Below, one piece after another: positions 4,233 to 25,639 of a stretch of DNA of 64,000 nucleotides. The notes under the pieces are model-generated. The model was not told the DNA's origin. It worked only from the letters and a program-made list of their open reading frames with translations, and did no database searches. How positions within the stretch are numbered: the stretch's first letter is position 1; each line of letters starts with the position of its first letter. The position numbers and the translations under genes were made by a program. The stretch comes from Patescibacteria group bacterium (GTDB taxonomy: Bacteria > Patescibacteriota > Patescibacteriia > Magasanikbacterales > UBA922), in NCBI GenBank assembly GCA_018823045.1, contig JAHJIX010000017.1:52300-116299 (forward strand). The letters are read 5' to 3'.

Positions 4233-4250
4233 ATCATTGCGAGGTGGCGT
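4233..4250. repeat. Half-copy (one arm, CATCATTGCGAGGTGGCGT) of the nested-palindrome repeat family
   Basis: Matches the left arm of the 9212-9306 and 12500-12623 elements. No partner arm is present. Confidence 0.5.
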
Positions 4251-4296
4251 ATTACTCATGTATCAAAAAACAGCCCTATACAGGACTGTTTTTATA

Positions 4297-5445
4297 TTAT
4301 GCTACATGCACCGGAGAGAGATTGTGCATCGTATGCTCTTTTTTATACACTGAGATGATTTCTTCAATCACACGATCCCAGGTATATTCTTTTTCAATGA
4401 TTTTTTTGTATTGTTGTCCTTTTTTGTTCAACACGGCTTGTTCTGTTTGAAGTATTATATCAAGCAAACTTGTCAATTGCTTGATACTTCCTGCACGATA
4501 CAATGCTTCTTTATCTCCGAGTAAATACTCATGCTCCGGAATGTCTGACAATATCATAGGGAGACCATAACTCATCGCTTCAAGCACTACGATTGGTAAT
4601 CCTTCATTAAGTGAAGGGTGCACATAAAGTGATGCATGTGAGAATAATGTATAAAGATCGTTCCCGGATTGAAATCCAGTAAAGATAATACTCTTATCCT
4701 CTGCTGCCAAACGATGCAACTCCTGCACATAGGCATTCGTATGGTATCCATCTCCAACAATAACTAATTGCTTATCTTTTCCTGCCGTTCTTTTTCCCCA
4801 TGCTTTAATTAAATGATGCATTGCTTTATGTGGAATCAGACGACTCACTGCTAAAACATAATTACCTGATTGAATCTTATGTTTTGTAAGGACATCAGTT
4901 TCTTCTTTTTTTGTTGGAATATACACTGCATTTGGAATAAACACCGCATCAGTATCATACACATCACGAGCGTACTGTTGAATCGTTTTAGATACCGCAA
5001 TCGTCATATGTGGAAAATGACATGACGCCCACTCACCAACTTTAAGCATAGTGCGAGCAAACAATCCCCATTTTTCATGTTTTCTATCAATCGAATGGAA
5101 TGTTGAAATCACACGAATCTTTGGGGTAAATACACGAGGAATCCATGCTAAAAGTGATGGCCCAACTCCATGATAATGAATCACATCAACATGTTCTTTC
5201 ATTGCATGAATCGTTGACGTAAAGGTATGAGTCAAGGCATCTAAATGTTTTGTTCGAATACTTTTTGTAAAAATGGTACGGACACCATCAACTTCTGTCG
5301 TTTCTTTACCGGTATACCATAAACGGCTATACACAGTCACATCCATGCCTTCTTTTTTTAAACGCATAGCAAGATCGTGAACGTGTTTTTCAACGCCACC
5401 ATGTACAGCAGGAATACCCTTTTGTCCGATCATTGCAATACGCAT
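4297..5445 (-). CDS. Glycosyltransferase family 4 (GT-B fold, group 1)
   Basis: 382 aa. N-term MRIAMIGQKGIPAVHGGVEKHV; C-terminal domain has the EGLPIVVLEAMSYGLP motif (EX7E-like) typical of GT4 enzymes. Confidence 0.8.
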   Translation of the reverse strand: MRIAMIGQKGIPAVHGGVEKHVHDLAMRLKKEGMDVTVYSRLWYTGKETTEVDGVRTIFTKSIRTKHLDALTHTFTSTIHAMKEHVDVIHYHGVGPSLLAWIPRVFTPKIRVISTFHSIDRKHEKWGLFARTMLKVGEWASCHFPHMTIAVSKTIQQYARDVYDTDAVFIPNAVYIPTKKEETDVLTKHKIQSGNYVLAVSRLIPHKAMHHLIKAWGKRTAGKDKQLVIVGDGYHTNAYVQELHRLAAEDKSIIFTGFQSGNDLYTLFSHASLYVHPSLNEGLPIVVLEAMSYGLPMILSDIPEHEYLLGDKEALYRAGSIKQLTSLLDIILQTEQAVLNKKGQQYKKIIEKEYTWDRVIEEIISVYKKEHTMHNLSPVHVA

Positions 5446-5560
5446 AAAGGATGTTAGTAGTAAATAAAGTGAAATAATACTATGCTATATATAGCACATA
5501 TATATCTATATAACAATAGACTATAACACAACATAATGCTTTTGTCAAGTACTAAAAAGC

Positions 5561-5590
5561 AAAAAACAGCTAACCTTAGCTGTTTTTTGC
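5561..5590 (-). terminator. Bidirectional intrinsic terminator (hairpin AACAGCTAACCTTAGCTGTT flanked by A-run/T-run)
   Basis: Perfect 8-bp stem with U-run on both strands, ~95 nt downstream of the hicB stop. Confidence 0.55.
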
Positions 5591-5685
5591 ATATATTCTT
5601 TATATTATTTCAATCCAGCAGCACGTAAAATGCTTTTTAATGTTCCAATTGGGACATCTTTTGTTTTGCTGTTAAACGAGATGTT

Positions 5686-5919
5686 TTAGGCATACGCCAC
5701 ATCAAGAGAAGAAATAAAACTATTTTCATCACTTATAATCTCTTCTTCATGCTCTTCAACGCTTTCTAAATATAATTTAATAGCATCAGCAGCCATTTCT
5801 CTTGCTTCTTCTAAACTTTTACCATATGTAATACACCCAGGTAAAGCTGGTACTTGTACCGTAAATCCTCCCTCAGGTTCTGGACGAAAAATTAAATTGT
5901 AGTGTAATGTTTTTTTCAT
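5686..5919 (-). CDS. hicB: HicB-family antitoxin (UPF0150), type II TA system
   Basis: 77 aa. FRPEPEGGFTVQVPALPGCITYGKSLEEAREMAADAIKLYLESV matches the HicB N-terminal RNase-H-like fold signature. Confidence 0.75.
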   Translation of the reverse strand: MKKTLHYNLIFRPEPEGGFTVQVPALPGCITYGKSLEEAREMAADAIKLYLESVEEHEEEIISDENSFISSLDVAYA

Positions 5920-6008
5920 ATATATTATTAACGTTATGCAACCATATCTAATACAGCATATATATAGTTAGTATAGCAAAATAACATCAAAAGTCAATGA
6001 AATAATCA

Positions 6009-8003
6009 CTAAATTCCACTACTCAAGCCAATAATATCGTCTTTCCCATCAAAATCAACATCAACCGCTCTTACATCGATTCCCTCTTTTAAAAAGCTCT
6101 CATAGGCCACAAATGGCCCAGAAATACGTGTCCCATCTATACTAAATACGGAAATTTCTGGTTTTTTTCCTTTTCCTGCTCCAACAATAATTTCATCCCA
6201 TCCATCACCATCAACATCTCCTGCAGCTACGTTTATCCCACCAGTATAGCTCGCTTCATAGGGCAACCAGGTATGCTCTAACGTATATGGACGATAGGTA
6301 TATACATGTACTTTCGGAGCGTACCCCACTCCCCCAGCAATCACTAAACGATTATTTTTAACAAAGCTCTTGTTTTTAGCGACTGCCAAAGAGTAGCCAC
6401 CAGTATACCCTTCTCCAAATGGATACCAATCTCTATGTTTTTGTATACCATCATAGGTATAAATACGAATAGGTAGAGTGTCCCCCGCCCCTGGAGTTGC
6501 ATAAACTTCCATATGCCGGTCTTTATTGACGTCTGCAACATGAAACGTTACTTCTCCCTCATAATATGGAAATGGATATTTTCTTTTCATCATCGGACGC
6601 CCATCATGCTTATACGCTCGAAAACTATTTTTTGTTGCCACAAAATAATCCCGCTTTCCATCTCCATTTAAATCAATATAGGCAATACGGTCTCCCCCAC
6701 GTTCTTTTTCATCAAAAATAAAGAACCCATTTCGTACACGAGAACCATCTGGCCGAAAAAACCGAACAAAACTCCCATTTGGGAAAATAATATCTTTTAA
6801 GGTATCAAATGTTTTTAAGAGTATACGACTATCATAATAATTTAAAAATATTTCAGAAACAATATCACCACTATTTGCAAGCGGATCTTGCGTGCCATGA
6901 ATTAACTCATACTCTCCATCAAGCTCTACATGTTGTTTTTGATTGGTACTGTTTAATACCACAAGCCCATTTTCAAATGGACGTGTCCAAATGTCATAGA
7001 CATATTCTTTTACACCACTTTTAGAACTGGAGTCATCAATTGGTGCACCTAAATCAATATCATACTCATCATACCACCACGTTTGGCCATGATCTTGATC
7101 GCCGTGGTCAAAAGATGAATAGGCATTTTCAAGCAATGCGCTCCCTAAACCAAAACGCATTTGCTGATAATTATATTGATTACCTGTATTATGTGTGTTG
7201 GTATTTAATATGGTTATGTATGGCTGATCATTTTGCTTCTGATTTTTTACCAGATTATTCATAATAGTAGGCCAGGTACCATTTCCTTCCCATGGTGTCG
7301 GGAATGTTTCAAACATACGTCCATTCACATATGGCTGAAGCGCATCATGAGAAGAACCATTCATGACAATGTATCGTGTATCTAATTGTTCTTGTGCGTA
7401 TTTTAAAAAGAATGTTGTTCGTTTTAACCATTCATTATCAATCGTCAAAGCACTATCTCTTTGCCCATTTTCATCTAAATCAATATCACCATTATTTGCC
7501 CAAGAAATATTATGAGAAACCATATCAAAAAAGACCCCATCCATATCGATTTTTTCTATCATGTAGGTATTAATAAACCCAACAAGATAGCGTGACCAAT
7601 CTTCACTCATATTTATTCCTTTAAGACTTGGCCAAATATATATAGGAGACCCAGCACTACTGCGCAACCACCAATTCTCTTGCACTGTTAAATACCGAAA
7701 TATAGGATCTTGCCCCCAATACGCAGTATTATAACTTTGTATTGGAATATACGCCAAAATAATAATTTCTCTATTTTTTGCTCGAATTTGTGCAACAACA
7801 GACGGATGTGCCTTCATTTGTGCCGGCGTTAAAATAAGCAAATCATATTTTGCCATTTTTGTCGTAAATGATGGTGATGACTGCAATTCATCTAAGTAAT
7901 AATTCGCAATCAAGGGATGATCATCTGATACAGCCTTTGCAGTACTCCCCCAAAGAAAGCACAAAGCAATACTGATAACAGAAATAATTATTTTTTTATA
8001 CAT
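6009..8003 (-). CDS. Secreted protein: N-terminal TIM-barrel glycoside-hydrolase-like domain fused to C-terminal FG-GAP/VCBS-type repeats
   Basis: 664 aa. Signal peptide (MYKKIIISVISIALCFLWGSTAKA). The N-terminal region resembles putative glycosyl-hydrolase-like (GHL/GH114-type) domains. The C-terminus has repeated DxDGDGxxD loops (DLNGDGKRDYFVA, DVDGDGWDEIIVGAG, DVDFDGKDDIIG) typical of FG-GAP beta-propeller blades. Confidence 0.5.
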   Translation of the reverse strand: MYKKIIISVISIALCFLWGSTAKAVSDDHPLIANYYLDELQSSPSFTTKMAKYDLLILTPAQMKAHPSVVAQIRAKNREIIILAYIPIQSYNTAYWGQDPIFRYLTVQENWWLRSSAGSPIYIWPSLKGINMSEDWSRYLVGFINTYMIEKIDMDGVFFDMVSHNISWANNGDIDLDENGQRDSALTIDNEWLKRTTFFLKYAQEQLDTRYIVMNGSSHDALQPYVNGRMFETFPTPWEGNGTWPTIMNNLVKNQKQNDQPYITILNTNTHNTGNQYNYQQMRFGLGSALLENAYSSFDHGDQDHGQTWWYDEYDIDLGAPIDDSSSKSGVKEYVYDIWTRPFENGLVVLNSTNQKQHVELDGEYELIHGTQDPLANSGDIVSEIFLNYYDSRILLKTFDTLKDIIFPNGSFVRFFRPDGSRVRNGFFIFDEKERGGDRIAYIDLNGDGKRDYFVATKNSFRAYKHDGRPMMKRKYPFPYYEGEVTFHVADVNKDRHMEVYATPGAGDTLPIRIYTYDGIQKHRDWYPFGEGYTGGYSLAVAKNKSFVKNNRLVIAGGVGYAPKVHVYTYRPYTLEHTWLPYEASYTGGINVAAGDVDGDGWDEIIVGAGKGKKPEISVFSIDGTRISGPFVAYESFLKEGIDVRAVDVDFDGKDDIIGLSSGI

Positions 8004-9187
8004 ACTCTCTTATATACCACTTCTAATGCATGCAAATAGTTTTCTTTATTATATTTCTTTTTTGTTTCTTTATAGATACTATTTTGCATGATTTGTTTTT
8101 CTTTTGACGATCGACTATACCATAATTTTACCTTTTCTGCAAGAGCATGACTATCTCCTGCTTCACATAATAGTTCTTTTGAAACGAGCTCAGAAATTCC
8201 ACCAATGTCAGCTCCAATAACGATTTTTCCTTTTGCATGTGCTTCTAAAATACTCAATGGACAATTTTCATACCAAATTGATGGCACAACGAGTAATGAT
8301 GCCTTGTCTATATACTGTTCTAATTGTTTCCCTGTTTGCCAACCAACTAACGATACATTCTCTAATTGTTCTTTTTGTATATATGCTTTTATTTTTTTTT
8401 CTTCAGGACCAGTACCAACAATTATATAAGAAATATCTGGTGTTTCTTTTGCTGCAGCGAGCAATACATGAATTCCTTTTTCTTTTGACAATCGTCCAAC
8501 ATAAGCAACATACTTTTTTTCTTTTGTTGCCAACTCCCCAATATCAACAGCATTTGGAATGACATTTATATTTTCTTCAGACAAACCACCTGTTACAGAA
8601 ATATCTTTCATAAACTGACTAGGCGCAATATATGCATCAATCACTTGATGCCATTTTTTCCATACTCTTACATAAGCCTCAATCATTGCAAAAAAACTTT
8701 GCCCCAAAGACTCCATACAATTCCCCAATAAACAACGGTAATATTTTTTACCAATCATCTGTTTTTCAATAGCCCCATGGTGAAACAAACGATAATTTGG
8801 AGAAATCATTTTATAATCATGCAAAGTCATCACTGATGGAATGCACTTTTCTTTTACTACATCAAGTAATGAAAAAGATAGTTGATGATAAATATTATGA
8901 ACATGAACAACATCAGGCTGCACTTGCTCAATATAGGCTGCAAATTTTTTCTTGGCTTCTTTATTATAAATACTTTTCCACCCTGCAGAAATTTTTCCAA
9001 AAAATCCTAAAGAAGCATAATCAATATATGCACTAAACTGTTTTTCATCAATAGTATTTTTTGGGTGATGCATACCAAAAATAAACACCTCATGCCCGGC
9101 ATTCTCTAATAATTCTTTTGTATCAAAAAGTACGCGCTCTGCTCCACCACGAATGTACCAATATTTATTAACAAGTAATATTTTCAT
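7988..9187 (-). CDS. Glycosyltransferase family 4
   Basis: 399 aa. MKILLVNKYWYIRGGAERVL N-terminus and C-terminal E…EAHAKGKIVIGADIGG block typical of GT4/group 1 glycosyltransferases. Confidence 0.75.
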   Translation of the reverse strand: MKILLVNKYWYIRGGAERVLFDTKELLENAGHEVFIFGMHHPKNTIDEKQFSAYIDYASLGFFGKISAGWKSIYNKEAKKKFAAYIEQVQPDVVHVHNIYHQLSFSLLDVVKEKCIPSVMTLHDYKMISPNYRLFHHGAIEKQMIGKKYYRCLLGNCMESLGQSFFAMIEAYVRVWKKWHQVIDAYIAPSQFMKDISVTGGLSEENINVIPNAVDIGELATKEKKYVAYVGRLSKEKGIHVLLAAAKETPDISYIIVGTGPEEKKIKAYIQKEQLENVSLVGWQTGKQLEQYIDKASLLVVPSIWYENCPLSILEAHAKGKIVIGADIGGISELVSKELLCEAGDSHALAEKVKLWYSRSSKEKQIMQNSIYKETKKKYNKENYLHALEVVYKRVCIKK

Positions 9188-9211
9188 AACATATGTTCTT
9201 TCAACCTACGT

Positions 9212-9306
9212 ACGTCATTGCGAGGTGGCGATAGCACAGCGCGGCAATCCCATGGTTTTTGCACGGAAGAATGAGATTGCTTCGTCGTGCCTCCTCGCAA
9301 TGACGT
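9212..9306. repeat. Nested-palindrome intergenic repeat element (copy B): outer arms ACGTCATTGCGAGG/CCTCGCAATGACGT, inner arms GCGGCAATCCC/GATTGCTTCG
   Basis: Direct reading: the 14-bp inverted termini are perfect and the inner inverted pair is nested. The element occupies the gap between a GT4 gene and the radical-SAM gene. Confidence 0.85.
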
Positions 9307-9334
9307 AAACTGTAACCATTCGCCTCCATATTAA

Positions 9335-10944: not shown

Positions 10945-10948
10945 TCCC

Positions 10949-12499: not shown

Positions 12500-12623
12500 A
12501 CGTCATTGCGAGGTGGCGTGAGCACACCGCGGCAATCCCGTTGTTAAAGAAAAACAATTGTTTTAAGACATAAACAAAGGGATTGCTGCGCCCCGTTTTA
12601 CAAGACGGAGCTCGCAATGACGT
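12500..12623. repeat. Nested-palindrome intergenic repeat element (copy C)
   Basis: ACGTCATTGCGAGGTGGCGTGAGCACACCGCGGCAATCCC…GGGATTGCTGCGCC…GCTCGCAATGACGT. It has the same outer and inner inverted pairs as copy B, with a longer AT-rich central loop. Confidence 0.85.
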
Positions 12624-12713
12624 AAAGTACTGTAGCACTCAAATTAAGGATGACAGTAATATTGTCATTATACCAAAAATAAGCTCTTTTGAGAAGAAAA
12701 AATAAGTATTATA

Positions 12714-12752
12714 AAACCCTGTCTCCGAAGAAACAGGGTTTTGTTTTTTTTG
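12714..12752. terminator. Intrinsic terminator hairpin (AACCCTGTCTCCGAAGAAACAGGGTT + T8)
   Basis: 11-bp stem followed by TTGTTTTTTTT on the plus strand. A weaker U-run is on the minus strand downstream of the TSP3 gene. Confidence 0.5.
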
Positions 12753-12885
12753 ATCTCATACCACCGAAGTGATTTGAGATACATACCACAGAGCTTTTAG
12801 GTAGCAATGTGGCTAGAGTTACGTGTGCCCTACTCACTCAAACCTAATTTTGAGTGGATCGTTGGGTAGCACTGATGAGTATTAT

Positions 12886-14805
12886 TTATTGATTGTCGCC
12901 GTTGTGGCTACAACCAACAGCGCCTGAAGGCAGCGGTGCGCAGGAATAATCCCCGTTCACCGTGTGGCATATGCACGTGGAAAAGTCCCAAGTGGACACG
13001 CTACACTCGCCTTGCTCGCTCCAGTGCCGGCCGTCAGAAACGGCCTCGTTACGAGAAGCACCTCGGACGGGCCACCACTCAAGGTAGGCCTGGTTACCGG
13101 GGGCGCTCGCGGACGCCGTGATAGTCACTGCAAATGAATTGCAATTGCCAGCTTGAGCGATCTGGACGCAGAGGTCCAATACACAGCTCTCACCGTCAGC
13201 GCAGTCAGCATCGTCCATGCAGGTATCCGCGGGAGGCGGAACCTCACAGAGATTACTGACGCAAACTTCGCCATCACCCTGGCAGGGGTTCTGCGGGTCG
13301 CAGTAGCCGGGGATGGGTAGATTTGCGCAGACACCGCTGTTGCAGGTGTCGTTGGTGCTCGGATCGGAGTCATCACAGTCCGCGTCGGTGACGCAGACTG
13401 CACAACCCTCGTTGATCTCACCGTCACAGTCGTTGTCGGCCATGTCATCACAGAGCTCAGGAGCTCCTGGGTAGACACTCGAGTTTCCGTCTTGGCAATC
13501 GACGTCGGCAGTAAAGCCGTCGCCGTCCAAGTCTTCCTCGCCGGGAGTGAAATCACACGCGCCGGGGGCGTCTTCAACGCCGTCACCGTCACAATCGCTG
13601 TCACAGGCGTTGCCGAGGCCGTCGAGGTCGAGGTCTTCTTGACCGGGGTTGGACACGTTGGGGCAGTTGTCGAGGACGTCGGGCACGCCGTCGCCGTCGA
13701 GATCGCTCTCACAAGCGTCGCCGATGCCATCGCCGTCCTGGTCGCACTGGACCGGATCCGTTGTCGGATCATCGTCGCAGTCGGAGGGGGCGTTGGCTAC
13801 GTCAGGGCAGTTGTCTTCGTCGTTGAGGACGTCATCACCGTCGAGGTCGCCGTCGCAAACGTCGCCGTCGCCGTCACCGTCCGTGTCGAGCTGGTTACGG
13901 TTGGCGAGGATACGACAGTTGTCGTCATCATCGTTCCCAGCGATGCCATCGTGGCCATCGTCAGGGATGCGGTCGTTGTCGTCGTCATCGTCACAGGCGT
14001 CGCCGAACTCGTCGTCGTCGCTGTTCAACTGGTCGACGTTGTGGATATCGGGGCAGTTGTCCACGTCGTTGTCGTGGTCATCGCCGTCACGATCGGTGTC
14101 ACAGACATCGCCGAACTCGTCGCCGTCCATGTTCTCTTGGTTGGGGTTCGCGGTGTCGGGGCAGTTGTCGATGCCATCGCCGATGCCATCGCCGTCACGA
14201 TCGTCCTCACAGACGTCGCCAGTGCCGTCACCGTCGGTGTCAATCTGGTCGGCGTTGGGGACGAGGCGGCAATTGTCGTCGTCTTCGTTTCCGTCGACGC
14301 CGTCATCACCGAAGTCAAGGACGCCGTCGTTGTCGTCATCGTCGTCGCAAGCGTCGCCGAGATCGTCGTCGTCGGTGTTCGCTTGCATCGGGTTGGGCAC
14401 GTCGGGGCAGTTGTCGTCATCGTTGCCGAGGGCGTCGTTATCGCGATCGCTGTCGCACTCGTCGCCGATGCCATCGCTGTCGATGTCGATCTGCCGAACG
14501 CACATGTTCTCGACGCAGAAGATCGGAGCAGCGAACTTGGCGCCATCGGGCCCCACCATGATGGCGGGGATGTCGATGCAGTCGTTGGCGTCGGCGCAGG
14601 CCACGGGGGCCTCGTCGACGAGCGCGGGCTCAGCGGGGGGGTTGGCGGTGCGGGGGCAGTTGTCAGCCCCGATGGGGATGCCGTCGGGGGTCAAGGCCGC
14701 CTCAGAGGCGGACGTGGAAGAGGGACCCTGGCCGGTCGCGCTACACGCGACGGCGAAGATCGAGAAGAGAAACAGGGCGATCATGCGCTGCATGACTTTC
14801 TCCAT
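12886..14805 (-). CDS. Thrombospondin type-3 (TSP3) repeat calcium-binding lipoprotein, Asp-rich
   Basis: 639 aa. Signal peptide + lipobox (LFSIFAVAC|S). More than 10 tandem repeats fit the TSP3 consensus DNCPxxxNxxQxDxDxDGxGDxCDxDxDNDG (e.g. [63 protein letters not shown]). Cys-rich C-terminal domain. ~65% GC. Confidence 0.8.
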
Positions 14806-14882
14806 TACTGGTATCGTGTATGATCTTTATGCTTAAAAAGATTACTTCATATCACGATACGTTAACAAAACCAGAAACTTTT

Positions 14883-15677
14883 CTAGAACGTCCAGCCGGT
14901 AGACACACCTAAGCGTGTCGCACCGAAACCGGATTCTTGCGTCGGAACCATGGGCGGCTCTGTCCCTGCTGGGAAGAGACCGACCTGGGGGCGTTGCGCC
15001 ACCCACTCAGAATGACCGAAACCGACTTGAAGGCCGATCCGAAAACCAGAGTTAAACAGACGCTCAACCTGCAGCTCGCCCATGTGGGTCTGCAACAGGT
15101 CGCCCTCGATATCAGCAGTTTCATCCCAAATGAGAAGACCTCGATACCCAAGCGCAAAGCGCCAGGCATCGATTCCTCGATACTGGGTCCCGAGAAACAC
15201 CGAAGTGCCTCCGGGTTTGAAACCGTCCATGTAGGCCGGAGCCCACGCGGTCGTTCCACGTCCATACCAGTTCTCGGCTATGCGGAGGTTTAACTCCAAA
15301 CCAAGTTCCAATAAAAACGCGTTGTCACCGTTGTCTGGTGTGATCAAGGCCACGGGGGTTAACCCGAGTCCCCAATCCCACTTTTTCTCCAAAGTCTCAA
15401 CCCTCTTTACAATCTGAGGGTCGGCTTGTGGCGGGGGCGGAGGAACTGGACATGAAACGATTTCAGAGGCCGTCTGCTCGTCAGAGCAGATGCCCGTTAT
15501 GCGAACCTTCTTACCAGGCGCACACTCGTTTAGGTCAAGGACCTTTTCCAATACCTCTCCATCCGGACAGGTAAGCTTAACTTTCCAACTGTTTTGTGCG
15601 TTAACCGGGTTCAGCCCGGCACTGATCACGGCCAGCATGGCCGTGACGAAGAGCGCCTTAATGGTGCTCCTTATCAT
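14883..15677 (-). CDS. Outer-membrane beta-barrel-like protein (signal peptide, C-terminal …TGWTF)
   Basis: 264 aa. N-terminal signal peptide (MIRSTIKALFVTAMLAVISAGLNPVNA). Alternating amphipathic beta-strand pattern in the C-terminal half, ending in an aromatic residue (F) as in OMP barrels. Immediately upstream of the TSP3 gene (operon-like). GC-rich. Confidence 0.5.
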   Translation of the reverse strand: MIRSTIKALFVTAMLAVISAGLNPVNAQNSWKVKLTCPDGEVLEKVLDLNECAPGKKVRITGICSDEQTASEIVSCPVPPPPPQADPQIVKRVETLEKKWDWGLGLTPVALITPDNGDNAFLLELGLELNLRIAENWYGRGTTAWAPAYMDGFKPGGTSVFLGTQYRGIDAWRFALGYRGLLIWDETADIEGDLLQTHMGELQVERLFNSGFRIGLQVGFGHSEWVAQRPQVGLFPAGTEPPMVPTQESGFGATRLGVSTGWTF

Positions 15678-15727
15678 ACCAACCTCCTTGCCAGCCGTTT
15701 AGGTGGCGGGGTTTATGTGTTTGGTAA

Positions 15728-15770
15728 CTACAGGATTAAAGAAAGTATATTACTTTGCTTAATCCTGTAG
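15728..15770. repeat. Perfect 12-bp inverted repeat CTACAGGATTAA…TTAATCCTGTAG with a palindromic 19-bp loop, in an AT-rich spacer inside the GC-rich island
   Basis: Direct reading of both arms. No T-run follows. Confidence 0.6.
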
Positions 15771-16026
15771 TCCAAATACAATTGGTAGATATGATGTATA
15801 TTAGTTTAATACTCATCAATTGTAATGATCGATTTAGGATGTGTTAAATCCTCAATCATCATTTAACTTGTCATAAGCATAAATGATGATAGTTGGATCC
15901 TCTATACAAGAAAGTATAGAGGTTAAGGCTCATCTAATAGTTGATCTACGTTGTGGACGTAATTCAATTATATAACGATGCTATCACGCGCCTTGAGGTG
16001 AGTGTGATAGTATTTGAAGATAGAAA

Positions 16027-20200: not shown

Positions 20201-22567
20201 ATCTAAGAGCTCACTTACAATTTCTTGTTTTATTCGTTCTTCTTGTTCTGTCTTAACCGCATCTTGTCCTTTTTTAAACTTACCATTTAACCATGCATTG
20301 TTTGCAATTAAATGACGAAAAGCACCACCAACACCACCACCAGCAACAATCGTTCCTGTAGCGGCTAAACCAGTCAATGCAAAACCTCCTGCAATCAAAC
20401 CAGCTCCTGTTGCTGCACCACCAACTAATCCAATCGTTAACCCCGTTTTTATTGCTAATTGCTTCCACAGTTTCTCTTGCTTCTTTACAAATTCACCTAA
20501 ACCATGCATTCTTTCTGCTACTTTTGCACGCACGGTCTCTTCTGCAGAAATAGCATATGTTTTGGCAACAACTTCAGCAAAACGTCCTTTCCATAGTTCA
20601 ACAAATTCTGGAGACTCTCCCTCTTTTAAAATATCTTGAAATTTACTTAAAATTTCTTGTGACAAAGAACCATTAAATCCATGCTCAACAATATGAGTAT
20701 ATAATTCTTTTAATGCTGCTTGTAATTTCTTCGAATCAATTTTCTCTTTTGCTTCTTTAAGAGACAAATCAAATTCTTTTCCTTGATATTCTCTCCCAGA
20801 AACCCGTTCTTGTAATTCAGCTGTTTCTTGTCTCTTTTTTGCTTTTTCTGCTTCAACTGTAGCTTGGTTGCTAGCTTCTGTGTGTAATGCTCCAAAATGT
20901 TGTTCTTTTAATTTTTTTAATGCTGCTTTTCTATCAGTTACAGCATTTTTACGTTGTTGTGTTATTTGATCTTCCACGGACAGTGAGACATGATTATAAA
21001 CAATACTACTACTACTAGCCAAAACACCCACCAAACTTCCCCCCAATGCTTTCATGTTCTTTGCTAGAGTAATAAATGTATCAATACTATCCTTTAAATT
21101 ATTATCAGTCACCTGAGCCTTTAATGCTTCTGCTTCTATCACTAACGCATCCATTTCTGCCTCAAAATCAAACATTCCCTCTTCGATAGTGTCGGGTCTT
21201 TGTACATTTTCCCAATCATTTAGGAGCTCTTTTAAAATATCAGCAGAACGTGAATCTTTAATACCTAATACATAATCAGTTTCAGCAACAATTCCTACAG
21301 CAACACCACTTGCAGCAAGTTCGGATTCAGGAATTGGATTATGATTACTATCTACAAAATCATCACCAATCTTTTTATATAAAGTGTCACCTTTTTTTTC
21401 TACATTATCTCCAATAAGCTCTTGCTCAGCCTGTTTTTTTCTTTTTTTATCAACTTCATTCCATATATATTGATATAAAGGGTGAGAATTACTCTCTAAA
21501 GAATGAAAAATATCAATATAGACATCTTCTTCTACATGAGCTAACTGATCATTATAATCGGCAATTACTGCTGGAGATAACTTTACTTCATTTGCGTTAA
21601 AATCATTAATTGTAGGAATAATCAACTGTCTTGGAGGAGCACCTCTTCTTCCTCCACCTTGATATTTTACAGGTAAATGATGTTGTTTTAATAATGCTTC
21701 TCTTTGACGATCATTTGCATTTCTAAATTCATCACCACTTAACGTATTCCCTGCTTCATCTCTTGCAGCATTAACCAAATCACTTAAGATAGTCTTCCTA
21801 TCCTCTTCAATATTATTTTTTATCAACTTAATTTCTTTTTCAATTTGTTCTAAAATTCTTTTTGCTAAATCTTTCTTTTCTTTCACCTCTGCTGCAGCAG
21901 GAACCGCTTCAGTCCAATTAGGATCTTTTTCTAATTGAGAAGCCCCTTTTACTTCTTTTACAGCCCTTTCTAGTTCTGCAATCACATCTTGCGCTTGTGT
22001 GTGCAACGCTTCTAATTTTTTTACTCTTTCTTTTATTGCACGCTTTCCTAAATGCGCAATATTTTCCATAGATAAAATTGCCTCTGCTTCAGCAACTGTT
22101 TTTTGTACTTCAGTAATACCTGTTTGTAAAGTAATACCTTCAGCAGATAAAACACCTGTAACTTCTCCTTTTAAACTATCTAATAAATCGCGTGTTTTTT
22201 GTAAATTTTTTAATGCATCGATTATCTCTTGTCCAACTGTATATGTTTCACCACTATGGTTCAATGTATACTCTACAGCACCATTTTTTTCAGATACATT
22301 TGTATCACCTATATTATATCCAGCAGGCAATCCATCTCCTGCCTTATCAACAATATCTGGTGCATAATCAAGCTGAATTGCATCACCATCTCCTTCTAAC
22401 ACAAGAATAAATTTTCCATCTTTACTAATTCGTGCTGGTTTTGCAAGTTTCCTTTCTTGCCATGTATTTCCAATATTAACAACAACCGTTGTATCTTTTA
22501 TATATTGGCTTAGCTCCATTGGCTGTTCCTGTCCTTCTCTATTTTTAAATTTTATTTCTTGTGACAT
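17228..22567 (-). CDS. Giant (1779 aa) hypothetical protein: long coiled-coil regions interrupted by three Gly-zipper hydrophobic hairpins. No signal peptide.
   Basis: ORF track. Gly-zipper segments GLTIGLVGGAATGAGLIAGGFALTGLAATGTIVAGGGVGGAF, GVSILLGAAATGFIMFDSMIYRGAMGAAAGTLTGY, AIGVLAGATLGTGAALLVGWGV. Extensive K/E-rich heptad-like stretches. Beta-rich C-terminus. Confidence 0.6.
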   Translation of the reverse strand: MSQEIKFKNREGQEQPMELSQYIKDTTVVVNIGNTWQERKLAKPARISKDGKFILVLEGDGDAIQLDYAPDIVDKAGDGLPAGYNIGDTNVSEKNGAVEYTLNHSGETYTVGQEIIDALKNLQKTRDLLDSLKGEVTGVLSAEGITLQTGITEVQKTVAEAEAILSMENIAHLGKRAIKERVKKLEALHTQAQDVIAELERAVKEVKGASQLEKDPNWTEAVPAAAEVKEKKDLAKRILEQIEKEIKLIKNNIEEDRKTILSDLVNAARDEAGNTLSGDEFRNANDRQREALLKQHHLPVKYQGGGRRGAPPRQLIIPTINDFNANEVKLSPAVIADYNDQLAHVEEDVYIDIFHSLESNSHPLYQYIWNEVDKKRKKQAEQELIGDNVEKKGDTLYKKIGDDFVDSNHNPIPESELAASGVAVGIVAETDYVLGIKDSRSADILKELLNDWENVQRPDTIEEGMFDFEAEMDALVIEAEALKAQVTDNNLKDSIDTFITLAKNMKALGGSLVGVLASSSSIVYNHVSLSVEDQITQQRKNAVTDRKAALKKLKEQHFGALHTEASNQATVEAEKAKKRQETAELQERVSGREYQGKEFDLSLKEAKEKIDSKKLQAALKELYTHIVEHGFNGSLSQEILSKFQDILKEGESPEFVELWKGRFAEVVAKTYAISAEETVRAKVAERMHGLGEFVKKQEKLWKQLAIKTGLTIGLVGGAATGAGLIAGGFALTGLAATGTIVAGGGVGGAFRHLIANNAWLNGKFKKGQDAVKTEQEERIKQEIVSELLDFNNGVLDMTQHLEQAGAIMSQTLRALTEQVQGTEEGNKELDTELAKLTADERKVYQQMLDQLIERADAGNETKKLQLAKAIFVMRDQGDRLSGDLEKQIEDGTVDPIVISKLEYVLQAFGGKKSLGVSILLGAAATGFIMFDSMIYRGAMGAAAGTLTGYRMAEGMRLSGERKEEKAHVSSVLDNLRAFLDPSKENPEMKELKQQTLYLKRLLHGTASPEEMTAVMYWEADEDGKQVIMRDKLLLTEIRQLVYEVEKEGVLLESPEQKMNLEAGVRAMKNAGQVLETADARKRKSKLKYRAIGVLAGATLGTGAALLVGWGVQEAKDTVRMVAAGETAGASVKTGVYNEDGELVAKNWGTQSSAETHQDSANTQSQEEGSTENKNAPEQAEPTPELKPAIELPKIGAKVSNVNYFDDKNLVNADGQRLAAEIDVGADNVRGAEIRAMKRLLEGYGHSDKDIQGMYRAQLKEWQIKIGGGVEARGFTLRPGAKIQLAFDAKGNPHFHIVAEDNQINLFDNVKEYHRGGGETTVVETNQQANVTDDNYQEVDKWNTTEYNEQAAAELRRVASSGEVLDKLPEGLGKRTGLAASSGSDDFGYEFWADKKTGDVHIKTGSGTVIKTSLDALKGSNPPRVEEGRFVTDPLPTDRRNFVDDIIKQKTMTPEAIKTGEDALGVHAKGGSGAIAGEGAPVKTVERSGREVIDTNKKAFHPKVSNKSLFSEQEVSSDVVADVSIEEGRLDTINGLSNSHDKLMNLKGLIANAQGNNKVLGHDIAYTVESESNAIYAEYKGRSILVEEENINKHLDIHNKLNEGSIDSSQIDQKLQEISGSSDAVEADAANIYQEDLTSDIEQSDDIDGFDMEPTVEEANDMLSKLDVIGEDAKHIVDKLQEVLNNPSGDAFNLKDNISDLEHPRYGNLLDPVDQSNPYAVSADGHGIKYLTPEGKHVFIDDNRYTFETDGEKLYKVDGAAQSEVLGIKFENGKPVYTFS

Positions 22568-22606
22568 ATAACGATGAGTTTATACAAATGATCAGATGAT
22601 AAAATA

Positions 22607-22813
22607 TTAATGATTGGTATCGATATCTTTTAAAACTTCAGCAAGCTTTAGTTTATCAATATCTTTATGAAGTGCTTGCAGGGTTTCCTGTTCTTTTTTT
22701 TCAATATCTTTCCAGGTAGCCAAAAAATGATCATATGCGCGTTGAAGCTTATTAATCTTTATTTGCGTATCATCAATTTCTTGTTGAATATGTTGTGAAT
22801 CTAAGACAGGCAT
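22607..22813 (-). CDS. Small (68 aa) coiled-coil hypothetical protein, co-operonic with the giant protein
   Basis: ORF track. 7-nt gap to the upstream gene, 40-nt gap to the giant gene. Confidence 0.45.
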   Translation of the reverse strand: MPVLDSQHIQQEIDDTQIKINKLQRAYDHFLATWKDIEKKEQETLQALHKDIDKLKLAEVLKDIDTNH

Positions 22814-22819
22814 AGATAT

Positions 22820-23146
22820 TTATGACATGACAGATGCAAATTCTTGTGCAAAATCATCTAATGTTTGTTTGACAATAGCATCAAACTCAGGCACATTGGT
22901 TTGCCAAAACTGTTGTAATTTTTCTGGTGAAATATTTTCATCTTCAAGTAAGCCTTGAAGTTGCTTTGCAGCAGGTTCATCAATTTTATCAATCAGTGCT
23001 AGACCAATACGACGTTGCGCTTCTGCTACAAACTGTGGAATATATTGTGCGCGAGATTCTTCTGAAAGTGTATCAAAACCATGCTGATCTAAAAGTTGTT
23101 CGATGTATTGATTTAAAAAATCAAACTGCTCATTTTGTTGTGACAT
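22820..23146 (-). CDS. Small (108 aa) acidic helical hypothetical protein, first gene of three-gene module
   Basis: ORF track. Acidic, helical (MSQQNEQFDFLNQYIEQLLDQ…). Confidence 0.45.
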   Translation of the reverse strand: MSQQNEQFDFLNQYIEQLLDQHGFDTLSEESRAQYIPQFVAEAQRRIGLALIDKIDEPAAKQLQGLLEDENISPEKLQQFWQTNVPEFDAIVKQTLDDFAQEFASVMS

Positions 23147-23288
23147 ATGTCTTTGAAGTTAGATAATAATTATATATACGATTATTTTATTGTAAACGGC
23201 TTACTATAGCATAAAAAAGCCCTTTTGTCAATTATAGCATGTTTTGGGTGATATGAACAAGCAAAAAAAGTCTGATTGTGCTTGAGGA

Positions 23289-23385
23289 TGGGATTGCTTC
23301 GTCATTCCGCTTCGCTCCATTCCTCGCAATGACGTGCTTTTATTACGTCATTGCGAGCCCTGTGAAACAAGGGCGCGGCAATCCC
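23289..23385. repeat. Nested-palindrome repeat, circularly permuted copy D (GGGATTGCTTCG…CCTCGCAATGACGT | ACGTCATTGCGAG…GCGGCAATCCC)
   Basis: The same four arm sequences as copies B/C, with outer and inner pairs swapped. It abuts the GIY-YIG gene. Confidence 0.8.
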
Positions 23386-23685
23386 TTACTTCATATCCTC
23401 AATCCATTGTTTATATAAATCCTCCCATTTAGGATTGTTTTTATTAATCAATAACTCTTTTTTTACACGCGAACCTGATTTTAACTGTTTTTCACGACTG
23501 ATTGCATCTTTTATACTGTCATATGTTTCTACATGTACCAACATATGTACATTATATTTTTTTGTAAAATGAGAACCGATTCCTTGTTTATGTTCAATAA
23601 TTCTTTTCTGTATATTTTGTGTTACTCCTACATATAATACGGTCTTTCTAAAATTTGTTAAAATATAGGTATAGTATGTATCCAT
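23386..23685 (-). CDS. GIY-YIG nuclease family protein (small YhbQ/UPF0213-like)
   Basis: 99 aa. YTYILTN…VLYVGVTQNIQKRIIEHKQG matches the GIY-x10-YIG motif with the downstream R and E. Confidence 0.7.
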   Translation of the reverse strand: MDTYYTYILTNFRKTVLYVGVTQNIQKRIIEHKQGIGSHFTKKYNVHMLVHVETYDSIKDAISREKQLKSGSRVKKELLINKNNPKWEDLYKQWIEDMK

Positions 23686-23710
23686 ATTTAATGTTTAGTG
23701 AGTTGTTGTA

Positions 23711-23757
23711 TGGGATTGCTTCGTCATTCCGCTTCGCTCCATTCCTCGCAATGACGT
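23711..23757. repeat. Half-element copy E of the repeat family (identical to first half of copy D)
   Basis: TGGGATTGCTTCGTCATTCCGCTTCGCTCCATTCCTCGCAATGACGT. It supplies the last 11 codons and the stop of the KilA-N ORF. Confidence 0.8.
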
Positions 23758-24104
23758 GGTAAAAAAAAGGGGTCGAATTCAAAAGCAATGTCTTTGTGTG
23801 CAAAAGTGCCACCATATCGACCCGCTTTTGATACGATACCTATGGCATTAACACCTTCAATCCATCGTTTTGATGTCATGACAAAATGATTTAACCCAGC
23901 CTCCATTCTAAACCCAGGGTTATTAATTTGCTCCCATAACCCCAAAAACTGCAAAGTATTTTTATTCCTTAACCAATTTTTAATGACATCATCCATTCTT
24001 TTTGCATCTTTAAATCGTGCAATATCAGTTAACGAAATAAAGTCATGCTCATTTTTAACAAAAAAATTGACATGAATATCTTTTACAATAAGATCTTGTT
24101 TCAT
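23724..24104 (-). CDS. KilA-N domain protein
   Basis: 126 aa. FISLTDIARFKDAKRMDDVIKNWLRNKNTLQFLGLWEQINNPGF resembles the KilA-N/APSES-type DNA-binding domain. The C-terminal PRHCEEWSEAE* is encoded by the repeat element. Confidence 0.5.
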   Translation of the reverse strand: MKQDLIVKDIHVNFFVKNEHDFISLTDIARFKDAKRMDDVIKNWLRNKNTLQFLGLWEQINNPGFRMEAGLNHFVMTSKRWIEGVNAIGIVSKAGRYGGTFAHKDIAFEFDPFFLPRHCEEWSEAE

Positions 24105-24184
24105 ATGCTCCTCCTTTTTTAATATCTAAAAGTCTAACCGTGTCAAATTCGACACGGTTAACTGTATTACTACATTCAGTAATA

Positions 24185-24802
24185 CTACCCAAAATGCCTT
24201 TTTTGCTTTTGCAAAACAAGTACTGCCCCAAATAGCAAACCAGCAAACAATCCAAATAGACCATTTACAACAATATTTGGACGCACTGGCCATTTTGTTA
24301 CTACTGGGCGATTAACAATTTTCATGGTGACGTCTCCCCCAACATACTCCCAACCTTTTGAGACAAGCGCATCAACGGTAGCACCCGCAAAAGCGATTGC
24401 TTGATTTTTATCTGTATTATACGCACTTACCCGCAAGACTCCTGTACCAAATACAACTGAAGATTGTACCATCTTCCCCCATGCTTTTCTTTTTTCTCTT
24501 GCACTGAGTGCATCTAATTCTAATGTATCTAAACTATACCCTGGCTGATCAATGACTTTTGCATAAAAATCATCTGTCGCAGTAATTTGTGCAAGATTTT
24601 CTCCCACACGTTCCGCTGATTTAATAACGGTATACGGGTCGACCCCATAGCGTGTTTTTGAAATAATAAGTACATCAGCATCTGCACGATATTCAAGTGG
24701 CAACACAATAGTCACCAATAAAGAAATAACCATAAACAACGCCCCCATAAGAAAAAGGAAGTTTTTTCGTTTGAGTAAGAGACGCATAGGATGATGATGC
24801 AT
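24185..24802 (-). CDS. Wzz/CpsC-like polysaccharide chain-length-determinant-type membrane protein (N- and C-terminal TM helices)
   Basis: 205 aa, two terminal TM segments flanking a soluble domain (LRVSAYNTDKNQAIAFAGATVDALV). Confidence 0.4.
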   Translation of the reverse strand: MHHHPMRLLLKRKNFLFLMGALFMVISLLVTIVLPLEYRADADVLIISKTRYGVDPYTVIKSAERVGENLAQITATDDFYAKVIDQPGYSLDTLELDALSAREKRKAWGKMVQSSVVFGTGVLRVSAYNTDKNQAIAFAGATVDALVSKGWEYVGGDVTMKIVNRPVVTKWPVRPNIVVNGLFGLFAGLLFGAVLVLQKQKRHFG

Positions 24803-24900
24803 ATACTTGTAATAAAAAATAAATGATAGATTTATAATAATATTATAGCATTTTTTTTGTTTTGATGCGAGAGGACATAGAAAAACATAATTTATCTCTC

Positions 24901-24983
24901 ACGTCATTGCGAGTGTAGCGAAGCAATCCCGCACTTTAATACCCTAAACATTGAGATTGCCGCGCTGTGCTAACGCCAGCTCG
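24901..24983. repeat. Nested-palindrome repeat copy F (variant with inner arms swapped: CGAAGCAATCCC … GATTGCCGCG)
   Basis: ACGTCATTGCGAGTGTAGCGAAGCAATCCC…GATTGCCGCGCTGTGCTAACGCCAGCTCGCAATGAC. Confidence 0.85.
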
Positions 24984-25059
24984 CAATGACATATATTTTT
25001 TTTGACAAAATAAATAATTCATGTTAATCTAAAGTTAATCTATATATAAACTTCAGAAT

Positions 25060-25287
25060 ATGCAAAAAACATACCCTATTATTGGCGTAAAAGAGTTGCG
25101 AGAAAATTTAAATTTCTATATTCAACAAATAAATGAAGGGCACAGCTTCACCATTGTAAAAAGATCAAAGCCTGTTTTTCATATAACCCCAATACAAGAA
25201 GATGAAGCATGGGAACAAGTCGCTGATTTTACACAAATCCAAACCGGTGGAGTAAACATACAAGACATCTTGTCTCGATTATCATAA
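25060..25287 (+). CDS. Phd/YefM-family antitoxin
   Basis: 75 aa. IIGVKELRENLNFYIQQINEGHSFTIVKRSKPVFHITP is the typical Phd/YefM N-terminal domain. 1-nt gap to the toxin gene. Confidence 0.7.
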   Translation: MQKTYPIIGVKELRENLNFYIQQINEGHSFTIVKRSKPVFHITPIQEDEAWEQVADFTQIQTGGVNIQDILSRLS

Positions 25288-25288
25288 T

Positions 25289-25528
25289 ATGGTCGACAAA
25301 ATAACAAAAACATTACAACGCCTCTCTCCAAAAGAAAAAAAATGGGTAAAAAATATTCTTACACAACTTAAAAAAAAAAATTTGAAACATCTTGATATAA
25401 AAAAGCTAAAAGGAAGAACTGATGTGTACAGAATAAGAAAAGGAAAAATACGTATTATGTTTCGGATGCACAAAGAAGATATCTATTTACTTGCAATAGA
25501 AAGACGTGCAGATACTACATATAACTAA
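25289..25528 (+). CDS. RelE/ParE-family toxin
   Basis: 79 aa. GRTDVYRIRKGKIRIMFRMHKEDIYLLAIERRADTTY matches the RelE/ParE core (R…YRIR-G-YRI…L-I-HR). Confidence 0.7.
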   Translation: MVDKITKTLQRLSPKEKKWVKNILTQLKKKNLKHLDIKKLKGRTDVYRIRKGKIRIMFRMHKEDIYLLAIERRADTTYN

Positions 25529-25547
25529 TATATAAGTATAAAGAACC

Positions 25548-25639
25548 ACGTCATTACGAGTGTAGCGAAGCAATCCCATTGTTTGGTGCATTAAACGATA
25601 AGATTGCCGCGCTGTGCTAACGCCAGCTCGCAATGACGT
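25548..25639. repeat. Nested-palindrome repeat copy G (same variant and orientation as copy F)
   Basis: ACGTCATTACGAGTGTAGCGAAGCAATCCC…GATTGCCGCGCTGTGCTAACGCCAGCTCGCAATGACGT. It shares ~85% identity with copy F over the shared arms and forms a direct repeat with it around the TA pair. Confidence 0.85.

Follow-up and report, generated by a model that had tools for sequence, protein, structure and literature searches.

The window, by which we mean the whole 64,000-nt stretch of Patescibacteria DNA that was analyzed, contains 11 complete copies (30–46 nt each) and one truncated copy of a hairpin module, together with a gene, ssn, that encodes a GIY-YIG nuclease and lies exactly between two inverted modules, M6 and M7 (Table 1). 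The 12 copies are located at seven intergenic sites inside 21 kb, with none in the other 38 kb of the window, and a scan of the window with the outer arm of the module found no copies between 25.7 and 64 kb. All seven sites had been named in a preliminary description of this DNA and all are present, with the corrections that copy F spans 24901–24992 rather than ending at 24983, and that the fragment placed at 4233–4250 starts at 4231. The conception of a modular, hairpin-forming, intergenic family of the REP kind that is clustered in accessory DNA was borne out.

Table 1. Hairpin modules and the ssn gene in the 64,000-nt window.
Feature	Coordinates	Strand	Composition, position or basis
Truncated module, decayed copy	4231..4250	+	Outer arm and 7 nt of interior (ACATCATTGCGAGGTGGCGT), no inner arm
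M1, left half of doublet B (9212-9306)	9212..9251	+	ACGTCATTGCGAG-GTGGCGATAGCACAGCGCG-GCAATCCC; arm scans, folds
M2, right half of doublet B	9273..9306	-	Between GT4 and radical-SAM genes
M3, left half of doublet C (12500-12623)	12500..12539	+	Edge of high-GC island
M4, right half of doublet C	12579..12623	-	Interior forms its own 6-bp stem
M5, solo module	23290..23335	-	Adjoins the ssn unit outer end to outer end, 9-nt gap
M6, terminal module of ssn unit	23345..23385	+	Inner end touches stop codon of GIY-YIG gene
ssn, 99-aa single-domain GIY-YIG nuclease, presumed cognate enzyme	23386..23685	-	PF01541, SsnA homology
M7, second terminal module of ssn unit	23712..23757	-	26 nt upstream of ssn start codon
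M8, left half of doublet F (24901-24992)	24901..24930	+	Arm scan
M9, right half of doublet F	24953..24992	-	Arm scans
M10, left half of doublet G (25548-25639)	25548..25577	+	One stem mismatch (ATTAC)
M11, right half of doublet G	25600..25639	-	Arm scan

The motif of the module is ACGTCATTGCGAG-(variable)-GCAATC(C/T)(C/T), or in full 5'-(AC)GTC-ATTGC-GAG...variable...G(A/C/T)(A/G)-GCAAT-C(C/T)-3', which describes a stem of 5 bp, then a purine-rich internal loop (GAG//G-N-R) and a variable interior of 9–25 nt. The reading GTC-ATTGC...GCAAT-C is common to the 11 complete modules, with a single stem mismatch, in M10, and the GTC 5' of the stem and the C 3' of it are kept in 11/11. Matches to the outer arm ACGTCATTGCGAG with up to two mismatches numbered 12 in the window versus 0.91 expected (the maximum in 100 shuffles was 4), and those to the inner arm GCGGCAATCCC with up to one mismatch numbered five versus 0.31 expected. 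The notion that the variable interior always forms a stem of its own was rejected, as such stems barely exceed the shuffled expectation (the longest perfect stem averaged 2.93 bp versus 2.48 bp in shuffles and was at least 4 bp in 38 of 162 interiors).

The basic unit is one oriented hairpin module, and the "nested palindrome" described previously is two inverted modules. Such doublets are present at four sites (B, C, F and G), are 92–124 nt in length with terminal inverted repeats of 13 nt, and have long bipartite hairpins, rather than four-way junctions, as their predicted minimum-energy folds. Copy D, which had been regarded as one element with its halves swapped, is actually two modules, M5 and M6, and copy E, regarded as a stray right half, is the terminal module M7 of the ssn unit. 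M5 and M7 are identical and lie within a 49-nt perfect direct repeat with a spacing of 422 nt, while doublets F and G are direct repeats, 86% identical, on either side of the Phd/ParE pair. The truncated module matches the initial 20 nt of a complete module at all but one position. The statement that copies lie exactly in gene gaps holds by the ORF map, with the exception that the last codons and stop codon of the KilA-N ORF fall inside 23712–23757.

The preliminary description had mentioned the GIY-YIG gene as a mere neighbor of the repeats; bracketed as it is by two inverted modules, we presume it to be their cognate gene. Its 99-aa product is a single domain with no extra DNA-binding domain, for which PF01541 (E 1e-14, residues 4–73) was the sole Pfam match above the curated cut-off, and its homologues are 86–105 aa in length barring spurious extensions. 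Among solved structures, the closest to it are 1zg2 and 1ywl, both labelled UPF0213 proteins. Pairwise BLASTP against the N. gonorrhoeae orthologue of SsnA gave 44% identity over 85 aa, gap-free, at an E value of 5e-24. Tyr6, Tyr17 and Glu64 of SsnA, mutation of which abolishes cleavage (PMC11893778), align to Y7, Y18 and E65 of the window protein, with all three residues kept. Among 33 diverse homologues Y18, G20, R28, H32 and E65 are invariant and Y7 is nearly so. By homology, the window protein is probably a member of the Ssn family, its E value being well under the cut-off of E < 1e-10 used for homologues by the authors who defined that family as CDD cd10448 (GIY-YIG_unchar_3) (PMC11893778).

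In the Ssn/SRM system, that of Ssn nucleases and Ssn-related motifs (SRMs; Chenal et al., Nat Commun 2025; PMC11893778), the Neisseria enzyme SsnA binds the hairpin repeat NTS/dRS3 (NTS being CGTCATTCCCGCGMAVGCGGGAATCYRG) solely as ssDNA and cuts a few bases upstream of it. Cleavage is limited to ssDNA and the RNA form of the site is not bound; the GTC is critical for cleavage and the C 3' of the stem for binding (PMC11893778). An SRM was found nearby in 71% of Ssn homologues and on both sides in 42%, and an effect of SsnA on transformation was shown in Neisseria (PMC11893778). The window repeats, a family called unrecognizable in the preliminary description, fit these SRM/NTS repeats published in 2025. 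We conclude that they are in all likelihood SRMs, that is, hairpin sites for the ssDNA endonuclease encoded at 23386–23685 (a probability of roughly 85%), and judged by their sequence they are of this known kind, not a new family. Literature searches by other routes returned little: the arm sequences matched only unrelated primers in full text, and nothing relevant was found by pairing GIY-YIG with REP, MITE, REPIN, terminal inverted repeats or palindromic intergenic repeats. What is new in the window is the Patescibacteria host, a TGCGAG-type stem that fails the published pattern and a module content unlike that of a related genome.

The association between gene and repeat was surveyed at 80 loci of ssn homologues from many phyla using a strict detector of hairpins with GTC and an AT stem. 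Such a hairpin was present upstream in 50 of the 80 loci, an inverted one downstream in 45 and both in 35. Modules numbered ~4.6 per kb at distances of up to 230 nt from the gene versus 0.2 per kb elsewhere in the same 80 loci, and roughly half of the latter figure is what the detector would return by chance. The hairpins that bracket ssn homologues start with GTC-AT and end with AT-C, and their stems co-vary. In a covariation test that imposed no stem requirement on GTCAT sites, the reverse complement of the next three bases followed by ATC was found at 106 of 160 flanking sites (permuted triplets gave a mean of 26.7 and a largest value of 41). Thirteen different triplets contributed, and with the TGC type left out the count was 54 of 97 versus 7.6. 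TGCGAG is the commonest motif type around the homologues closest to the window protein and was found at 33 of the 80 loci. The gonococcal ssn gene is itself inside an NTS cluster, among dRS3-like repeats, and four RIME-like doublets, which may be RIMEs, flank the S. meliloti homologue. Sixty-nine stretches of viral contigs also carry the module type, and no ssn gene was found in the DNA of them that was examined; modules therefore occur far from the gene too, and this set provides no test of the association.

The published degenerate SRM pattern, HGTCWYN(0-2)YYVSBRHN(0-5)WNVSBRGN(0-2)RNCYNB (PMC11893778), had no matches in the window, even with its loop widened to 30, versus nine in 5.3 kb of a Neisseria control. 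It was found near nine of the 80 ssn loci, compared with 68 for the generic hairpin with GTC and an AT stem, and at none of the 33 TGCGAG-type loci. The pattern is a search tool and not a definition of the family. Since it misses the TGCGAG type, the reported prevalence of SRMs is probably an underestimate for the branch closest to the window protein. Counting against the SRM reading are the misfit of the window modules to the pattern, their short 5-bp stem with its internal loop (the NTS stem has 8 bp), the near-chance level of further stems in the interior, the UPF0213 label of the closest structures, and the 69 viral stretches in whose examined DNA no ssn gene was found.

The genes on either side of a doublet share a strand and the gaps are transcribed, with M7 necessarily in or before the 5' leader of ssn, as might be expected if the repeats were cis-acting RNA structures, such as a terminator, a REP-like mRNA stabilizer or a small RNA. 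Folding of the doublets as RNA, a check that had been proposed for them, gave z-scores of -4.7 to -9.7, indicative of strong folding; these scores are not specific because any inverted repeat folds well. The Rfam search, also proposed, identified only tmRNA and tRNA-Asp in the window, with nothing relevant in 23200–25700 at E values up to 10 and no family for the repeats. In addition, because they come in inverted pairs, the modules favor neither orientation with respect to genes, doublet G has a separate terminator after it, and the failure of SsnA to bind RNA (PMC11893778) also speaks against a role as RNA. We consider that explanation improbable.

The doublets could also be regarded as classical MITE- or Correia-like elements, i.e., deletion derivatives of a DDE-transposase insertion sequence that move by cut-and-paste through their terminal inverted repeats, and their shortness (~100 nt), 13-nt inverted termini and intergenic positions are what such elements have. 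The likeness to MITE, REP and Correia repeats drawn in the preliminary description nevertheless stood only for REP: no target-site duplications flank any of the four doublets, no transposase was found among the window genes scanned, and the window has no IS with such ends. Moreover, the supposed terminal repeats also occur solo and abutted outer end to outer end, and across phyla the gene between such ends is a GIY-YIG nuclease, not a transposase. A MITE or Correia origin is thus very improbable. Even less credible is that the doublets are integron-like attC sites that mark gene cassettes, such as the toxin–antitoxin pair, for recombination by a tyrosine integrase. An attC site has the core GTTRRRY in an R''/L''-L'/R' palindrome and belongs to an array next to intI. 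Each doublet is an imperfect palindrome about as long as an attC site, with an outer and an inner pair of arms; two of the doublets flank the toxin–antitoxin pair, and there is a tyrosine integrase gene at 34928–36016. However, the arms ACGTCATTGCGAG and GCAATCCC have no GTTRRRY core, this sole integrase belongs to a distinct tRNA-Asp island 9 kb away, on the far side of core genes, and the same hairpins bracket ssn genes across the 80-genome survey.

How the repeats have spread is a further question. One answer, which is compatible with their being SRMs and adds to it a claim on spread, is that the unit of module, ssn and module is a present or former mobile element akin to a REPIN/RAYT system, with the gene-less doublets as non-autonomous derivatives copied by Ssn on ssDNA. 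The unit is laid out like an insertion sequence, and the same idea was raised by the authors of the Ssn study (PMC11893778). Several observations would fit it. CCCAGAGTTAAA opens both the doublet spacer in the related genome L151 and the ssn 5' leader in L156; the layout in L156 is as in the window, while L151 has a module upstream only and a doublet downstream, with the same module type at four places. Module content differs between the window and a syntenic relative at about 75–80% DNA identity, the copy at 4231 is decayed, the spacing of the 49-nt direct repeat equals one unit length, and tandem ssn units are present in Mesonia L144. Doublets are also common elsewhere: the 80 loci contain 74 head-to-head module pairs, and the viral contigs 35 doublets. 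Against this, neither empty sites nor recent insertions turned up: in five collinear assemblies of the relative, indels are absent at modules, and a metagenome scan for empty sites found no relatives of the neighboring 364-aa protein. Target-site duplications, as noted, are absent, and no Y1 (HUH) REP-associated transposase was identified among 28 window ORFs scanned, the flanked gene being a GIY-YIG nuclease. The two terminal sites are on opposite strands, unlike the ends of IS200/IS605 elements, and ssn is usually at one or two places per replicon, like a domesticated gene. Finally, cutting is the sole demonstrated activity of Ssn, with no strand transfer or joining reported (PMC11893778). 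We therefore hold the mobile-element origin of the unit to be a doubtful, if tentative, possibility, and think it unlikely that the gene-less doublets are REPIN-like copies propagated by the nuclease via single-stranded intermediates. If true, this would amount to a class of bacterial mobile elements driven by a GIY-YIG enzyme, an idea that for Ssn is a hypothesis only (PMC11893778).

Homology, site architecture, gene–repeat association and stem covariation were all observed here. By analogy with Neisseria SsnA, the window protein may cut sites of the M1–M11 type, with effects in its host. When the module strand is single-stranded, ATTGC would pair with GCAAT and the resulting hairpin would be bound by Ssn, the C directly 3' of the stem weighing most for this binding. 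Cleavage, governed by the GTC, would then fall on that strand a few bases 5' of the module; the enzyme would not act on duplex DNA, on RNA or on the complementary strand. As a doublet consists of a module, a spacer and an inverted module, it would offer one cuttable site per strand, at its two outer edges, and the ssn unit would share this geometry with the gene as its spacer. The likely outcome would be cutting of site-bearing ssDNA, either taken up from outside or present as intermediates of recombination or replication, and recombination might be altered around the flanked accessory genes (the glycan genes, the toxin–antitoxin pair, KilA-N and ssn).

These results place an Ssn/SRM pair in the Patescibacteria, which are very small, host-dependent bacteria that are generally thought to rely on the uptake of foreign DNA. 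For such bacteria, an enzyme that cuts incoming ssDNA at marked sites could thus be of consequence. The pair is also a new candidate enzyme–site combination for single-stranded-DNA tools, and the repeats account for spurious peptide extensions and small false ORFs in protein databases.

The repeats can be compared with several known systems. REP/RAYT systems and REPINs likewise have short hairpin repeats, both solo and in inverted doublets, that flank a single-copy nuclease gene, are recognized as single-stranded hairpins and make no target duplications. They differ in that Ssn has a GIY-YIG rather than an HUH/Y1 fold, with no covalent intermediate or joining activity known for it, and in that the window repeats have no conserved GTAG-type tetranucleotide. 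The "peel-and-paste" elements of the IS200/IS605 family resemble the ssn unit in having subterminal hairpins that are read on ssDNA, with cutting beside the hairpin and no target duplications, whereas their ends are same-strand and not mutual inverted copies, their enzyme is an HUH transposase, and their mobility is proven where that of the ssn unit is hypothetical. Correia elements and MITEs have target-site duplications and DDE transposases, neither of which was seen in the window. The NIME arrays of Neisseria, one of which contains gonococcal ssnA, and the RIME elements of Rhizobium are mosaic intergenic arrays of hairpin repeats, with different stems (ATTCCC...GGGAAT; CTCATCCCTGTG...). The closest likeness is to the Ssn/SRM system itself, with which the window shares a single-domain GIY-YIG protein of ~95–100 aa with the same catalytic residues, oriented GTC-AT...AT-C hairpin repeats with inverted copies on either side of the gene, and many extra intergenic copies clustered at accessory genes. 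It differs in its host, a member of a group absent from the main text of PMC11893778, in its 5-bp ATTGC/GCAAT stem with a GAG//G-N-R loop versus the 8-bp stem of the Neisseria NTS, and in that inverted doublets make up most of its copies; the Neisseria pair is known biochemically and that of the window from sequence alone.

The family of intergenic repeats put forward in the preliminary description is real: within the 64-kb window, the 13-nt outer arm, ACGTCATTGCGAG, has 12 matches with up to two mismatches, versus 0.91 expected and a maximum of 4 in shuffled sequence, and the inner arm has 5 matches versus 0.31 expected. The repeat unit is a single oriented module, which on direct reading of the sequence has the consensus 5'-ACGTCATTGCGAG, 9-25 variable nt and GCAATC(C/T)(C/T)-3'. 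Eleven complete modules and one stump are present, and the structures described earlier as nested palindromes are doublets, that is, inverted module pairs. The sites reported were all recovered, but one doublet ends at 24992 and the arm-only fragment starts at 4231. The doublets fold far above shuffled sequence, as any inverted repeat would. Their placement in gene gaps also held, all modules being inter-ORF with the sole exception of the one at 23712-23757, within which a KilA-N ORF ends. No comparable repeat was found in the 25.7-64 kb portion of the window. The GTC 5' of the stem and the C 3' of it were kept in all 11 modules; the stem has only 5 bp, and after it comes a conserved internal loop, rich in purines, in which GAG faces GAA, GCG or GTG. 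Additional stems within the variable part were not a general feature of modules of this TGCGAG type.

Positions of the hairpin modules, doublets and ssn gene in the window
Feature	Position	Strand	Description
Complete modules	9212, 12500, 23345, 24901, 25548	plus	
Complete modules	9306, 12623, 23335, 23757, 24992, 25639	minus	
Stump	4231 (start)		20 nt
Doublets	9212-9306, 12500-12623, 24901-24992, 25548-25639		inverted module pairs, spacing between modules 21-39 nt
ssn ORF	23386-23685	minus	99-aa GIY-YIG domain protein, PF01541, E 1e-14

The GIY-YIG gene, designated here as ssn, had been regarded as a mere neighbour of the repeats, whereas it is exactly bracketed by two mutually inverted modules, one (23345-23385) ending exactly at its stop codon and the other (23712-23757) ending 26 nt ahead of its start codon, so that ssn is in the position of the short spacer of a doublet. 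Two sites had consequently been misread: the supposed copy with swapped halves (copy D) comprises an extra solo module (23290-23335) and the first of the ssn-unit modules, and the supposed right half (copy E) is the other flank of the gene. The solo module and the module upstream of ssn belong to a perfect direct repeat of 49 nt whose copies are spaced by 422 nt, equal to one unit length; this looks like one ssn unit (module, ssn and inverted module) and the start of the next. The KilA-N domain gene (23724-24104) has its stop codon within the module upstream of ssn, and it is absent from the syntenic locus of a relative, L151, where that module comes straight after the preceding 201-aa gene.

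A search of a plasmid collection with a homologue matched records that were actually N. gonorrhoeae chromosomes, in which the gene is located within a cluster of CGTCATTCCCGCGCAGGCGGGAATCTAG repeats of the dRS3 type. Over a gap-free 85 aa, the window protein and the gonococcal orthologue share 44% identity (E 5e-24). The N. meningitidis SsnA, a 94-aa GIY-YIG protein, binds this dRS3-type hairpin repeat (NTS) only as ssDNA, cuts a few bases upstream of the NTS and is inactive on duplex DNA, RNA and the reverse strand (Chenal et al. 2025, PMC11893778). Cleavage is governed by the three bases, GTC, directly ahead of the palindrome and binding by the C after it, and the loop tolerates change or extension (PMC11893778). 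Equivalents of SsnA Y6, Y17 and E64, at which mutation causes loss of cleavage, are kept in the window protein. Based on the 44% identity, these catalytic residues and the GTC and C of every module, we assign the repeats on sequence grounds as Ssn-related motifs (SRMs) and ssn as a gene for an Ssn-family nuclease, which places a family thought not to be recognisable in a known system described in 2025 (PMC11893778). What is new here is the phylum, the window being part of a metagenome-assembled Patescibacteria genome, and the motif type, not the system. That the repeats are an RNA element is unlikely given that they have no Rfam match and no orientation bias, and that SsnA ignores RNA. Integron attC sites were excluded by sequence and context.

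Homologues of the window protein number in the hundreds and span many phyla; among 33 that were aligned, Y18, G20, R28, H32 and E65 are invariant. Scanning a single genome per species yielded at least 588 confirmed relatives, of which 80 loci were retained, from Bacteroidota, Pseudomonadota, Cyanobacteriota, Chloroflexota, Planctomycetota, Bacillota, Saccharibacteria, Omnitrophota and others. Almost everywhere, the gene is flanked by a GTCAT-hairpin-ATC upstream and its inverse downstream, with a lineage-dependent stem sequence (TTGCGAG...GCAATC, CCCGAGCGAAG...GGGATC, TTCCCGCGAAAGCGGGAATC, CCTACGG...CCGTAGGATC and others). By a strict detector (GTC, then a perfect stem of at least 5 bp starting AT), a module was identified upstream at 50 of the 80 loci, downstream at 45 and on both sides at 35, and at least one was within 250 nt of the gene at 68. 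Module density near the gene was ~20-fold that elsewhere in these loci, a background of which about half is at the detector's chance level (119 matches in shuffled sequence versus 466 observed). The published figures for bacterial Ssn homologues are at least one SRM nearby in 71% and SRMs on both sides in 42% (PMC11893778). In a stem-free covariation test, which asks for GTCAT and, within 55 nt, the reverse complement of the next three bases plus ATC, 106 of 160 flanking GTCAT sites were positive (permuted triplets: mean 26.7, maximum 41). These involved 13 triplet types, and without the TGC type the count was 54 of 97 versus 7.6, which indicates that pairing matters and not sequence alone.

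The window's own TGCGAG type is the commonest near these homologues (33 of 80 loci), and 107 loci yielded 162 distinct modules of it. It is found as well in 69 viral-contig stretches, often as doublets, and on large plasmids, among others those of Novosphingobium, Methylosinus and Methylocystis, with no annotation beneath. The Ssn homologue entries P0036, P0077, P0101, P0104, P0105, P0025 and P0026 are extended at the N or C terminus by hairpin repeats read as protein (for example VIARSPVLRDDEAIS, IATSLRSSQ and CHPRESGDL); such extensions are gene-calling artefacts from flanking modules. In Sinorhizobium meliloti (CP090106.1; L158, 1840-2940), four ~110-nt doublets of CTCATCCCTGTGCTCGTCACAGGGATCC modules, with CTC in place of GTC, surround an ssn homologue that lies downstream of hfq-hflX. 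We take these doublets to resemble the RIME elements of Rhizobium; if they are RIMEs, that family would be related to SRMs.

The data do not support a DDE-type MITE or Correia element, as no target duplications flank the repeats, no matching transposase was found among the window genes scanned, and single and abutted modules exist; of the likenesses first suggested, that to REP elements stands. Ssn might also spread the repeats, which would make the ssn unit and doublets mobile. The Magasanikbacteria-like L151 has ~70-83% DNA identity to the window across aligned blocks. The module upstream of ssn is unchanged in place there, but downstream of ssn are a decayed remnant and a doublet, and a solo module follows a Phd-like gene, where the window has two doublets around a Phd/ParE pair. 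These differences imply that module content turns over, with gene gains and losses at module edges. The spacer of the L151 doublet starts like the 5' leader of ssn at another locus, L156, which is consistent with doublets deriving from the ssn unit by loss of the gene. Tandem arrangements also occur: Mesonia sediminis (L144, 9548-10711) has three copies of ssn with its modules at 423-nt spacing, and L079 and L120 each have one full and one partial copy. The spacer-leader match and the Mesonia tandem speak for mobility; against it are the lack of target duplications, the failure to find an empty site in related assemblies or a metagenome scan, and the fact that only cleavage, and no joining, has been reported for Ssn. 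The authors of the Ssn study themselves remarked on the likeness to insertion sequences and REP/RAYT (PMC11893778).

The Phd/ParE pair (25060-25528) is located between two directly oriented 97-nt doublets (24900-25643) that are 86% identical, and the L151 Phd-like gene is on the opposite strand relative to ssn; the two layouts suggest rearrangement at modules. Between tmRNA and infC lies a second GIY-YIG gene, at 29003-29260, whose 85-aa product is more distant, matching gonococcal SsnA at 36% identity across 72 aa (E 1e-7). Ahead of this gene is a 98-nt tandem duplication (28775-28872 and 28880-28977, 95% identical), each copy with a different hairpin, GTCACGTGAGCACGAAGTGCTTTTACGTGAC, and the ~430-nt insert with this gene (28775-29260 region) is absent from L151. 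This gene and its hairpins may be a second enzyme-site pair. An AT-rich island of ~7.4 kb (31223-38760) adjoins tRNA-Asp, has no hairpin modules inside and encodes a large serine recombinase (31258-32847), a C5 DNA methylase and an EcoRII-C-like endonuclease, a tyrosine integrase and two ASCH proteins; L151 lacks this island, and the corresponding flanks there are ~0.9 kb apart. The doublet at 12500-12623 is at the left edge of a high-GC island (12600-16000; 0.49-0.55 versus ~0.35 elsewhere) that encodes a 639-aa protein with thrombospondin type 3 repeats and a 264-aa protein without a Pfam match.

By homology, once the module strand is made single-stranded, ATTGC would pair with GCAAT, and Ssn would bind the hairpin and nick a few bases 5' of the GTC. 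A doublet would present one such site per strand, at its outer edges, as would the ssn unit. Probably, ssDNA that carries sites would be cut, for example imported DNA or intermediates of recombination and replication, and recombination near the accessory genes that the modules flank would thereby be modulated. In Neisseria the system reduces transformation by repeat-bearing DNA, and Ssn biochemistry comes from four proteins, of Neisseria and Wolbachia only (PMC11893778).

Compared with the published Ssn/SRM system, the main text of which does not mention Patescibacteria (PMC11893778), the window modules differ in that they fail the degenerate SRM pattern (0 matches versus 9 in a 5.3-kb Neisseria control): their stem starts TGC where the pattern demands pyrimidines, and their interior is longer. 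Among the 80 loci the published pattern matches near only 9 genes, versus 68 for the generic hairpin. The closest analogue in behaviour is REP/RAYT, of which the enzyme is HUH, whereas that of the window is GIY-YIG.
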